A stretch of 64,000 bases of DNA from Escherichia coli 042 (GTDB lineage: Bacteria; Pseudomonadota; Gammaproteobacteria; Enterobacterales; Enterobacteriaceae), in NCBI RefSeq assembly GCF_000027125.1, contig NC_017626.1. One strand, 5' to 3'. The notes beneath the pieces were generated by a model, which saw only the letters and a list, made by a program, of their open reading frames with translations, had not been told where the DNA came from and ran no database searches. The first letter of the stretch is position 1. The number at the start of each line of letters is the position of its first letter. A program made the position numbers and the translations under genes. This document shows positions 1,760 through 16,108 of this stretch, one piece after another.

Positions 1760-2263
1760 TTACGCCACTTCTGACGCCGCGCTATCTAACAGCGCCATCT
1801 CTTCGCTGTTCAGCAGTTTTTCGATGTTCACCAGAATCAACATGCGGTCACCCAGTGCGCCCAGTCCAGTGAGATATTCTGTTGAAAGCGTCACGGCAAA
1901 TTCCGGTGCCGGACGAATTTGCTCCGCCGTCAATGACAGCACATCTGAGACGCCGTCAACCACGATGCCGACCACCCGCTGTCCGAGATTCAGGACGATA
2001 ACTACCGTGTTGTCGTTATAGTCCACATCCACCTGGCTGAACTTAATTCGTAAGTCAACAATCGGCACAATAACACCGCGCAGATTCGTGACGCCTTTGA
2101 TAAACGCTGGCGTGTTCGCAATCCGTGTTACCTGATCATAGCCACGGATCTCCTGCACTTTCAGAATATCAATACCGTACTCTTCATCACCAAGGGTAAA
2201 TACCAGAAATTCCTGGCCTGACGGCTCGCTGGCCAGCTTTGTTACATTCGTCATACCGGTCAT
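1760..2263 (-). CDS. cheW: chemotaxis coupling protein CheW
   Basis: 167-aa ORF recognised as CheW ([42 protein letters not shown]...). Confidence 0.97.
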
Positions 2264-2283
2264 ATTGTTACCTTTTTACTCAT

Positions 2284-5175
<2,892 letters not shown>

Positions 5176-13286: not shown

Positions 13287-14276
13287 TTACTTACCGCCTA
13301 ACCCTTTTTTCTCCAGTTCTTCTTTAAAGTTGTCACGCGTGATCAGCACCACGTCGGTAACTTCGGTGAATTTGGTCGGTTCAACACCTTTTGCGACCCA
13401 GTTGTAAAGCATTTCGCTGGACTTATAACCATGTACGTCCGGGCTTGGCAGCAGTGATCCGTAGAAGCCGGTTGCCTGTGCCTTAGACAGTTCGCTCACC
13501 GCATCCACACCGTTAATACCAATACCGATGATATCGGCTGCTTTAAAGCCTTGACCTTCCGTCGCGCGTACGCCGCCCAGCACGGTGCTGTCGTTCATAC
13601 CGACGATCAGCCAATGTTTAACTTCCGGATGTTGAACCAGCATTGAGTTGGCAGCGTCAAATGCCCCCGGGATGTCGTTAGATTTGGTAGGTACCTGATA
13701 AATTTGTTTTTCCGGGAATCCTGCAGCTTTCAGCGCATCCATAGAACCCGTAGTACGGCGACGAGCCGTATCCAGTTCGTTGGAGGTAATCGCCATCACC
13801 GCGCTTTCTTTGACATCCCAACCACGTTTCTGCATCTCTTTATACAGTTCCTGGCCCTGACGTTCGCCAATTTTGGTCGCTGCCATCATCACCAGCGGAA
13901 CGGTATCCATTGGCTTGCCTTTGGCGTTAACAAACTGGTCATCCACGGCAATGACTTTCATATCGTAGCCACGCGCTTTCGCCACGATGGCAGAGCCGAG
14001 TTTCGGGTCCGGAGTACAAATAACGAAACCTTTCGCGCCACTGGCAGCCAGGCTGTCGATAGCGTTCAATGTTTTTTCGCCATCCGGCACGGCAATCTTA
14101 ATAACTTCAAACCCTAAATCCTTCCCGGCTTTATCGGCAAACTTCCATTCGGTCTGGAACCACGGCTCTTCCGGTTGCTTCACCAGGAAACCGAGCTTCA
14201 GGTTCTCCGCCATAGCGGATTGTGACATAACGGCTGCCAGACCAATGGCTGCCAGGGCTTTAGTAAATTTGTGCAT
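13287..14276 (-). CDS. araF: L-arabinose periplasmic binding protein
   Basis: 329-aa ORF with signal peptide MHKFTKALAAIGLAAVMSQSAMA, recognised as AraF. Confidence 0.96.
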   Translation of the reverse strand: MHKFTKALAAIGLAAVMSQSAMAENLKLGFLVKQPEEPWFQTEWKFADKAGKDLGFEVIKIAVPDGEKTLNAIDSLAASGAKGFVICTPDPKLGSAIVAKARGYDMKVIAVDDQFVNAKGKPMDTVPLVMMAATKIGERQGQELYKEMQKRGWDVKESAVMAITSNELDTARRRTTGSMDALKAAGFPEKQIYQVPTKSNDIPGAFDAANSMLVQHPEVKHWLIVGMNDSTVLGGVRATEGQGFKAADIIGIGINGVDAVSELSKAQATGFYGSLLPSPDVHGYKSSEMLYNWVAKGVEPTKFTEVTDVVLITRDNFKEELEKKGLGGK

Positions 14277-15072
14277 GGTTCTCTCCAGCTTTAGTGTCGT
14301 TTTGTGTAGGGCAAAAACGAATGACTTTCGTTAAATTAATCGGAAAACAAAGCATTACCTTTTAACTAAAAGATAAGTGACCGTGTTGACATAGTTTTAG
14401 CGAGAAATTAATTCTCCATAGGAGAGCAATATCACATCGCAGAATTACAGTGAGAACGTGCATAAATTTAGCGGGAAAAGACATAAGGAAAAGCTCATTT
14501 GTCAGACAAATCACCGAGCGCGCAGCAGATTAATCCATAAGATTAGCCTGGAAATCCTTGTTGTCTTTGGTACCCATGCGGGATGTCTTCTTTTTAACCA
14601 GTCAATAGGCTGCATTACCTGGCGTTGAGTTTTTGAAATGGTGTAATAACCGCAACTCAAAGATGTGGAAAATGCGCGTCATTCATTTCGTCATTAATTA
14701 TCACCGTGCTCATTAATTAACAGAACACGTATACTGAGAGCCATATCGCAAAAATGAAAAAACGTTTTAAAAAATCATTGCCTCATCATGAATTCAAATC
14801 CCCCTATTAATATCAACAAGATACAAAAAGCATCATCATTAAAATTCATTGCAGTTACATTGATTTCATCAATGAAATGTAAAAATATATAAACTTGATG
14901 ATTTAAGCATTTTCTTATACCCGTTCAGACGTTATTCTTATTTCAGATCATCGTCAGAATTGACTCCACGATCACATTTCGGACCGGCAGAAAGGAATTA
15001 TTCTGCAAACAGTAATTATGGTGTTTTGATTTATCTTGCACCTCTCCACTTCTGGATATAAGGATATTAGGT

Positions 15073-15576
15073 ATGGCAACCGCTGGAATGCTTCTCAAAC
15101 TCAACTCTCAAATGAACCGCGAGTTTTACGCATCCAATCTCTACCTTCACCTGAGTAACTGGTGTTCTGAACAGAGTCTGAACGGCACCGCCACTTTCCT
15201 TCGCGCCCAGGCACAAAGTAATGTGACCCAAATGATGCGCATGTTTAACTTTATGAAGAGTGTCGGCGCTACCCCAATCGTTAAAGCCATTGATGTTCCC
15301 GGTGAAAAACTGAACTCTCTGGAAGAACTGTTCCAAAAAACGATGGAAGAATACGAGCAACGTTCAAGCACGCTGGCGCAGTTAGCCGATGAAGCGAAAG
15401 AACTGAATGATGATTCAACCGTCAATTTCCTGCGCGATCTGGAAAAAGAACAGCAGCATGATGGCCTGTTGCTGCAAACCATTCTTGATGAAGTGCGCAG
15501 TGCGAAACTTGCGGGTATGTGCCCTGTGCAGACCGACCAACATGTTCTGAATGTCGTGTCACACCAGCTGCATTGA
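15073..15576 (+). CDS. ftnB: ferritin-like protein FtnB
   Basis: 167-aa [34 protein letters not shown]..., paralogous to ftnA 1.3 kb downstream. Confidence 0.92.
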
Positions 15577-15907: not shown

Positions 15908-16021
15908 CGTAAACTCCTGATAGCATTTTGAAAGCCGTTATAGTAGCGGCTTCACATCTTCAGCGATAGTCACATCCACCGTCATCAGGACACAAAAAAA
16001 CCTGCCGGAGCAGGTTTTTTG

Positions 16022-16108
16022 TTATCGGAACATATTGCCTGGCGGTACGTCTTTGAACGTCTTGCAATAGTTATTGAACATACTTTTCAGGATCTTGCGC
16101 AGTTTCAT
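16022..16108 (-). CDS. azuC: small protein AzuC (28 aa), within the IsrB sRNA locus
   Basis: Reverse strand reads ATG AAA CTG CGC AAG ATC CTG AAA AGT ATG TTC AAT AAC TAT TGC AAG ACG TTC AAA GAC GTA CCG CCA GGC AAT ATG TTC CGA TAA = MKLRKILKSMFNNYCKTFKDVPPGNMFR; below the ORF-track size cut-off. Confidence 0.8.
   Translation of the reverse strand: MKLRKILKSMFNNYCKTFKDVPPGNMFR

Follow-up and report, generated by a model that had tools for sequence, protein, structure and literature searches.

The araF-ftnB gap of Escherichia coli is probably a composite of two known control regions and the leftover of a lost DJ-1/PfpI gene

The 796 bp between araF and ftnB in Escherichia coli 042 are probably a composite, in which the araFGH control region lies on one side, the ftnB promoter and leader lie on the other, and DNA left over from a gene loss fills the space between them, with no hidden gene. 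We base this reading on the pattern of conservation, on synteny, on the positions of motifs, and on a missing coding or RNA signal. In the window, by which we mean the whole 64,000-nucleotide stretch that was analysed, araF occupies positions 13287-14276 on the minus strand and ftnB occupies 15073-15576 on the plus strand, leaving a gap at 14277-15072. The G+C content of the gap is 35.9%, as against 49.9% for the window as a whole, with values of 24-33% over 14682-14945 and the minimum of 24% at 14806-14945. The longest open reading frame touching the gap is 56 aa, and the original prediction was accurate in describing a long AT-rich gap that has no annotated product and no ORF of 60 aa or more. 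MG1655 carries a counterpart of the same 796-bp length at 1986129-1986924 (an MG1655 position minus 1,971,852 gives the position in the window), and its curated annotation places no feature inside the gap, though the nearby 28-aa AzuC and the sRNA azuR/AzuR are included. Among 5,426 complete E. coli genomes, 5,417 matched the gap sequence, and in the 30 matches listed there was no annotated feature under the match. The length and composition of the gap are real and not an artefact, and their explanation is ordinary.

The part of the gap next to araF, 14277-14562 on the minus strand, is the araFGH control region, holding the promoter, an inferred 5′ leader, and operators for CRP and AraC. This promoter/operator, with AraC and CRP, was reportedly described by Hendrickson et al. 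in 1990. The block is conserved in at least six genera, with long invariant runs in alignment A2, and by blastn it is 73-78% identical to the DNA upstream of araF in Citrobacter, Leclercia, Lelliottia, Silvania, and an Enterobacter genome. We compared 32 loci from outside Escherichia, which were collected via FtnB, and in nearly every one of them the homology on the araF side ends at 14561/14562.

Motif scans resolved the organization of this block. A CRP-like site, GGAGAGCAATATCACA, at 14421-14436 matches the TGTGA-N6-TCACA consensus at 8 of 10 positions, and its right half, TCACA, is invariant across genera together with the flanking bases. A conserved candidate -10 element, TAAAAC, adjoins this site at about 14394-14399 on the minus strand, and we infer an araF transcription start that would fit this -10 and would place the CRP site at -41.5. 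Scanning with the AraC half-site consensus TAGC-N7-TCCATA gave four half-sites, all in the same orientation and arranged as two pairs on the plus strand. The proximal pair spans 14448-14485, with half-sites at 14448-14464 and 14469-14485 that are direct repeats 21 bp apart, have 3 and 2 mismatches, and carry AGC...ACATA and CAGT...CATA cores that are invariant across genera. The distal pair spans 14523-14560 (half-sites at 14523-14539 and 14544-14560, again 21 bp apart, with 1 and 2 mismatches) and resembles araI1-I2 (…TCCATAAGATTAGC…); every genus with araF keeps it, and homology between genera stops just past it. Alignment A2 shows no variation across genera in the core of any of the five sites. 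The CRP-like site lies between the AraC pairs and araF, and is therefore downstream of both pairs relative to araF.

This order agrees with the published description of araFGH, where the CRP site is over the -35 region and AraC is bound upstream, the reverse of araBAD (PMC2893085). The araFGH promoter/operator is attributed to Johnson & Schleif 2000 in that same citing paper, and arabinose- and cAMP-dependent binding and activation at araFGH are likewise known from the literature. Compared with the known promoter/operator we find no difference, with a CRP-like site next to the candidate core promoter and two AraC dimer sites made of 21-bp direct repeats upstream. By this arrangement, CRP would sit next to RNA polymerase with the two AraC dimer sites upstream, each composed of two direct-repeat half-sites, and arabinose-bound AraC and cAMP-CRP would jointly activate leftward transcription of araFGH. 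The reporter used in PMC2893085 carried a truncated araFGH fragment "including all known regulatory elements", and the distal primer for this fragment maps to 14635-14652. The gap does exceed what the araFGH promoter needs, as originally proposed, since the cross-genus block ends at 14562 and the published reporter fragment at 14652. With the control region set at 14277-14562, 286 bp of the gap are accounted for, and this element covers only that portion of the 796 bp. We also considered a rightward, AraC-driven promoter acting from the distal I1-I2-like site. This candidate was rejected because inspection by eye found no usable -10 at the right spacing, and because the site has the same orientation in genera where the terminator of a DJ-1/PfpI gene, described below, directly follows it.

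The opposite end of the gap belongs to ftnB, with a promoter region at 14806-14945 and a 127-nt 5′ leader at 14946-15072, both on the plus strand. By blastn, homology to other genera on this side starts between 14857 and 14877 and ends between 15013 and 15068, with Citrobacter and Salmonella matching from the 14857-14877 boundary onward. With an nhmmer profile built from the other genera, the confident part of the alignment begins at about 14806, and the alignment extends back to 14727 at low posterior probability. The promoter region, which is conserved in Citrobacter and Salmonella, contains a conserved ATTAATATCAACAAGATAC at 14806-14824, a CpxR-type box, GTAAAAATATATAAA, at 14879-14893, a conserved TTTTCTTAT at 14910-14918, and a conserved -10 element, TATTCT, at 14933-14938. 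The CpxR-type box matches GTAAA-N5-GTAAA at 9 of 10 positions, a score that 77 of 1000 shuffles equal on composition alone. The GTAA(A/G)-N5-(G/A)TAA(A/G) repeat is also found in Lelliottia, Silvania, and Leclercia, and alignment A1 shows conservation of the tandem GTAA(A/G) repeat, TTTTCTTA, and the -10 that reaches from Escherichia to Silvania and Leclercia. ftnB is a published member of the CpxR regulon, and its expression goes up 2-3 fold on Cpx activation and down 2.2 fold in a cpxR mutant, while one ChIP-exo study did not list ftnB among the direct CpxR targets. Conservation of the box and the -10 from Escherichia to Leclercia supports direct Cpx control, despite the one ChIP-exo non-detection.

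Prior work gave the ftnB 5′ UTR a length of 127 nt and identified four GGA motifs in it, three of which were footprinted by CsrA (Pourciau et al. 2019, PMC6686035). The published length therefore puts the ftnB transcription start near 14946. The GGA motifs fall at 14981, 14994, 15054, and 15062. The one at 14994 is in the loop of a perfect 6-bp hairpin, GCAGAA-AGGAAUUA-UUCUGC, at 14987-15006, and the one at 15062 is within the Shine-Dalgarno sequence TAAGGAT, 8 nt before the ATG. The strongest CsrA footprint on the leader, BS3, overlaps the Shine-Dalgarno sequence (PMC6686035). Among 11 E. coli strains the leader has no segregating sites, and it is 93-99% identical across Escherichia. That the leader is invariant in the sampled E. 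coli and nearly so throughout the genus supports the importance of post-transcriptional control.

We find no difference between this region and the published ftnB (yecI) promoter and leader, which have the same start near 14946, four GGA motifs including one in the Shine-Dalgarno sequence, and a CpxR-type GTAAA-N5-GTAAA box about 60 bp upstream. What is added here is the cross-genus conservation of the box and the -10, along with a leader that lacks polymorphism. We envisage that CpxR, at a tandem box whose centre is some 60 bp before the start, would aid a weak sigma-70 promoter with the -10 TATTCT, and that transcription would begin near 14946. CsrA then binds GGA motifs of the leader, among them the one in the Shine-Dalgarno sequence, and blocks translation during exponential growth. 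The original prediction had raised extended ftnB regulation as one explanation for the distal half of the gap. The stretch 14806-15072 is conserved across genera, and together with the CpxR-type box, the -10, and the published CsrA-bound leader this makes extended ftnB regulation correct for about 270 bp.

This leaves 14563-14805, which is best understood by comparing gene content at the same site in other genera. We found araF next to ftnB in 36 loci. Eight of these are from Escherichia (including E. coli, E. albertii, E. whittamii, and other Escherichia lineages), and their gaps measure 789-800 bp. In the loci of other genera in which the extra gene is intact, the gap is 1101-1435 bp and contains a 185-aa ORF on the same strand as araF. 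This ORF encodes a DJ-1/PfpI protein (PF01965, E 2.6e-29); the nearest NCBIfam model is DJ-1 family glyoxalase III, with a score below the model cutoff. Citrobacter, Salmonella, Leclercia, Lelliottia, Silvania, and an Enterobacter genome still carry the gene between araF and ftnB, and it likewise precedes ftnB in the arizonae and diarizonae subspecies of Salmonella enterica. Altogether, we count 26 loci, drawn from about seven genera, with a PF01965 gene at the site; araF is present in 24 of these, and all eight Escherichia loci lack the gene. Intermediate stages of decay are visible elsewhere, as the gene is truncated or degraded in three Citrobacter loci and frameshifted in one Leclercia locus.

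Given that the gene is absent from all eight Escherichia loci, the middle stretch is best read as a deletion scar. The gene has the same position and orientation in the Citrobacter/Salmonella group and in the Leclercia/Lelliottia/Silvania group, which makes its loss in the ancestor of Escherichia the parsimonious inference; that the other lineages gained it would be less parsimonious. Searches of the Escherichia gaps for a remnant of the gene with tblastn (E up to 100) or nhmmer (--max) returned none, so the scar reading rests on synteny and on a short positional match. What follows the distal AraC site in other genera is a G+C-rich hairpin and, after it, TTACCA(G), the reverse complement of the DJ-1/PfpI Trp-stop. 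In the window, a degenerate hairpin, CCCATGCGGG, and TTAACCA are found at the same distance from the distal AraC site. We designate 14573-14601 on the minus strand, with this hairpin and TTAACCAG, as a probable relic of the 3′ end of DJ-1/PfpI on the grounds of position, and the short match is suggestive of the stop codon and terminator of the lost gene; nhmmer gives no confirmation of the match. In several respects the region is like other enterobacterial scars of gene loss, where a gene at a fixed syntenic position in sister genera is missing, the gap is oversized and near-neutral, and intermediate decay occurs elsewhere. It is unlike such scars in having no recognisable coding remnant, only the short stop-codon/terminator match. 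The loss of DJ-1/PfpI, which the original prediction did not foresee, is probably the chief cause of the extra length of the gap.

The evolutionary behaviour of the middle segment fits this reading. No blastn match to 14563-14805 was found in the 32 non-Escherichia loci, and on the basis of this and its divergence we describe 14602-14805 as an Escherichia-specific, fast-evolving, AT-rich spacer and a probable scar of gene loss. Compared with other Escherichia species, identity is 32-40% over 14563-14681 and 53-67% over 14682-14805, while 4-fold sites of araF and ftnB are 63-73% identical. Between Escherichia species, then, 14563-14805 drifts at about the neutral rate. Across 11 E. coli strains, 4-fold sites have a nucleotide diversity of 0.093, compared with 0.023 for the araF region and 0.022 for the ftnB promoter, and the leader has none (0.000). 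The two halves of the middle segment reach 0.040 and 0.062, which are the highest values in the gap but still below the 4-fold sites. The identities within Escherichia rank these regions in the same order as the E. coli diversity. We hypothesize that the leftover 14563-14805 probably serves only as an AT-rich spacer, and that coating by H-NS is plausible given the G+C content of 24-33% over 14682-14945.

Two islands in the middle segment are better conserved within the genus than their near-neutral flanks would suggest. The first, ATGTCTTCTTTTTAA at 14583-14597, is largely kept across Escherichia and least so in E. albertii. The second, at 14692-14719, is a tandem CATTAATTA … CATTAATTA, the second copy of which is identical in four of five divergent Escherichia loci, and it overlaps the best Fur 7-1-7 match, at 14689-14703, which is at chance level. 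These islands, together with diversity lower than that of 4-fold sites, mean that some weak function is possible. One form this could take is a young, lineage-specific regulatory site at the tandem CATTAATTA or at ATGTCTTCTTTTTAA, or else a young small gene at the 18-codon MKKRFKK… frame beginning at 14754, which is restricted to E. coli, and we regard this as a slim prospect. Should it be true, the site or gene may have emerged on what is left of the promoter of the lost gene and may connect a new signal with the uptake of arabinose or the expression of ferritin B.

A broader alternative is that the whole distal half, including 14563-14805, is H-NS-silenced, AT-rich upstream DNA of ftnB with distant sites at which FNR, Fur, or other regulators would activate or relieve silencing, in the manner of ftnA. 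The low G+C of 14682-14945 is as expected of a tract bound by H-NS, and in Salmonella H-NS has been reported to bind ftnB, with Fur acting positively and probably via H-NS. FNR is known from the literature to bind ftnB in vivo, at a site described as farther upstream than usual, and the reduced diversity and conserved islands discussed above would also fit such a role. The precedent is the Fur/H-NS anti-silencing region upstream of ftnA (Nandal et al. 2010), and the two genes are alike in belonging to the ferritin family, in having an extended AT-rich upstream region, and in the implication of H-NS, for ftnB in Salmonella. They are unlike in that the ftnB gap has no Fur box above chance, Fur had no effect on a published E. 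coli ftnB′-′lacZ fusion, and the extended region is not conserved across genera. Indeed, outside Escherichia nothing is conserved upstream of about 14806, although ftnB and its core promoter are.

Consensus scans for Fur, FNR, CRP, IHF, ArcA, and NsrR bear on the same question. The best Fur boxes in 14563-14945 match at 12 of 19 and 10 of 14 positions, scores equalled by 702 and 495 of 1000 local shuffles, respectively, and so the Fur-box search suggested in the original prediction yielded no match above chance. The best FNR match in this interval was equalled by 975 of 1000 shuffles, and no FNR consensus above chance was found there. The published distant FNR site was not located, and as a consequence functional ftnB upstream DNA may extend beyond 14806. 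In one natural E. coli strain, an IS1 deletion leaves only 14870-15072 upstream of an intact ftnB, which shows that loss of the remainder is tolerated and not that the remainder is functionless. Taking both sides together, we consider it unlikely that the distal half as a whole is ftnB regulatory DNA, and favor the composite of two control regions and a scar. Separately, a TTGAT-TTC-ATCAA palindrome at 14860-14872 was rejected as an FNR site, as its spacing is 3 nt instead of 4 nt and it is specific to E. coli.

Another reading, already suggested, has the distal half of this long, unannotated gap encode an sRNA that would be transcribed from its AT-rich DNA. Hairpins that might end such a transcript are present, one a weak terminator-like hairpin at 14662-14680 on the plus strand and another a short hairpin followed by a T-run at 14573-14597. 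The terminator-like matches are weak only, with a 6-bp stem and three G-C pairs, and no sigma-70-like promoter was found at 14200-15150, where 2.9 were expected from shuffles. Folding of 14563-14870 on both strands gave z scores of +0.56 and +0.88, and so the region is no more stable than shuffled sequence. Rfam gave no match inside the gap at E up to 1, the two sub-threshold matches both being outside it, and one RIL-seq-derived sRNA dataset has no node for araF-ftnB. Add to this that the segment is near neutral within the genus and not conserved beyond Escherichia, and that the MG1655 annotation records azuR close by but nothing in the gap, and an sRNA here is very unlikely.

A small protein fares no better. 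Three plus-strand ATG frames could be proposed, at 14672-14716 (14 aa), 14754-14810 (18 aa, MKKRFKK…), and 14788-14892 (34 aa), and the first of these is the 14-codon frame near 14673 that had been pointed out, MRVIHFVINYHRAH. The frames do exist, and among 11 E. coli strains the 18-aa frame is intact in 10 and the 34-aa frame in nine. We compared the three frames and two minus-strand frames in the eight Escherichia loci, and the three plus-strand frames also in the 11 E. coli strains. None was conserved among the Escherichia loci, and each plus-strand frame was broken in at least one E. coli strain. For the 14-aa frame, AAG replaces ATG in two of 11 E. coli strains, the other Escherichia species lack the ATG (one has TTG), and the frame is shifted in two. 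In an O157:H7 strain an internal stop interrupts the 18-aa frame, which has lost its ATG in every other Escherichia species and whose substitutions mostly change the amino acid, as do most changes in the short ATG frames overall. Stops or a frameshift interrupt the 34-aa frame in two of 11 E. coli strains and in all other Escherichia species, and the part of it that is conserved, the 3′ half, is where the CpxR box and the ftnB promoter lie. None of the three is annotated in MG1655, where even the 28-aa AzuC is recorded. With starts lost or stops and frameshifts gained in other Escherichia for all three frames, we find it extremely unlikely that any of them encodes a protein.

A hidden sRNA or small protein in the gap is thus unsupported. 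Those elements of the gap that can be assigned are known from earlier work, and as an evolutionary remnant the probable scar is nothing unusual. The significance extends little beyond tidying the map, in that a conspicuous and unannotated 800 bp needs no new gene. Two characterised control regions make up about 550 bp of it, and loss of DJ-1/PfpI in the Escherichia lineage is the best explanation for the remainder.

Other origins of the middle segment were considered. Within 14601-14681, short strings shared with other Escherichia (GCTGC…ATTAC and AATGGTG…AAT) can be seen by eye, which suggests indel-ridden homology and not replacement by foreign DNA, and we therefore call this stretch not reliably alignable instead of foreign. 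An inversion or replacement of 14601-14681 was rejected, as blastn-short gave no inverted match. The middle segment is single copy in 5,416 E. coli genomes, which led us to reject an origin from a repeat or mobile element. Its apparent "plasmid" matches are to large records that resemble chromosomal sequence filed under plasmids; three of these records measure 4.8-4.9 Mb.

The 5′ leader of ftnB (14946-15072) contained no segregating sites among 11 diverse E. coli strains, and across the genus its nucleotide identity of 93-99% exceeded the 87-90% of the ftnB coding sequence. In the leaders of Silvania and Leclercia, the stem of the hairpin at 14987-15006 is apparently maintained by paired changes (ACAGAA/TTCTGT), and the GGA in the hairpin loop is substituted. 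Further upstream, just 5′ of the CpxR box (14879-14893), lies a palindrome around TTGAT-TTC-ATCAA (CATTGATTTCATCAATG) at 14860-14872, within approximately 14853-14880. Its half-sites are FNR-like but are separated by 3 nt as opposed to 4 nt, and conservation of the left half does not extend to other Escherichia species.

An observation from our comparison of loci is that E. coli Ecol_542 (NZ_CP018970.1) retains an intact ftnB in a locus without araFGH, where the only DNA from the araF-ftnB gap is the last 203 bp, equivalent to 14870-15072 and beginning just before the CpxR box. This arrangement lies at positions 2036-3201 of that locus, and an IS1 element there adjoins a truncated trehalose-6-phosphate synthase gene. 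E. coli Ecol_542 is a naturally occurring "minimal promoter" strain for ftnB. In E. coli TB354 (NZ_AP038814.1), the match to 14596-14810 is limited to the first 48 bases of the query (genome positions 2801710-2801757), and this partial alignment suggests a further rearrangement or insertion within the gap.

E. coli 042 is mosaic across 13287-15576. Over the gap, most of the 5,417 E. coli genomes share approximately 96.6% identity with strain 042 and only 2 reach 99% or more, and identity between 042 and MG1655 at 4-fold sites is 0.86 in araF and 0.95 in ftnB. Together this suggests recombination breakpoints around the gap.

A simple sigma-70 scan of 14200-15150 returned 0 promoter-like sites despite the AT-richness of the region, compared with a mean of 2.9 in shuffled sequences; this deficit could be due to chance, or spurious promoters could be avoided here. 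Outside the gap, between yecJ and the azuC/azuR region, 15962-16026 on the plus strand gave a sub-threshold Rfam match to STnc370, an sRNA family from Salmonella; the match scored 33.4 bits (E 0.074), whereas the gathering score is 54.

The DJ-1/PfpI gene, which occupies the araF-ftnB interval in sister genera, is degraded in three Citrobacter loci (L008, L039 and L015), where the gaps are approximately 1000-1130 bp and fragments alone match, and in Leclercia adecarboxylata NCTC13032 a frameshift splits it into two ORFs, one of 119 aa and one of 77 aa. Degradation or frameshift is independent in several non-Escherichia lineages, and the gene appears to be lost frequently. In Salmonella enterica subsp. 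diarizonae, no match to AraF was found at the compared locus, which carries, within locus positions 2047-2827, both a 141-aa ORF that is an apparent araH 3′ fragment and retained homology to the araF promoter. The homology corresponds to 14277-14340 and 14391-14509, and this remnant adjoins an intact DJ-1/PfpI gene. Here the AraC-regulated promoter seems to have survived, in part, the loss of its own operon.
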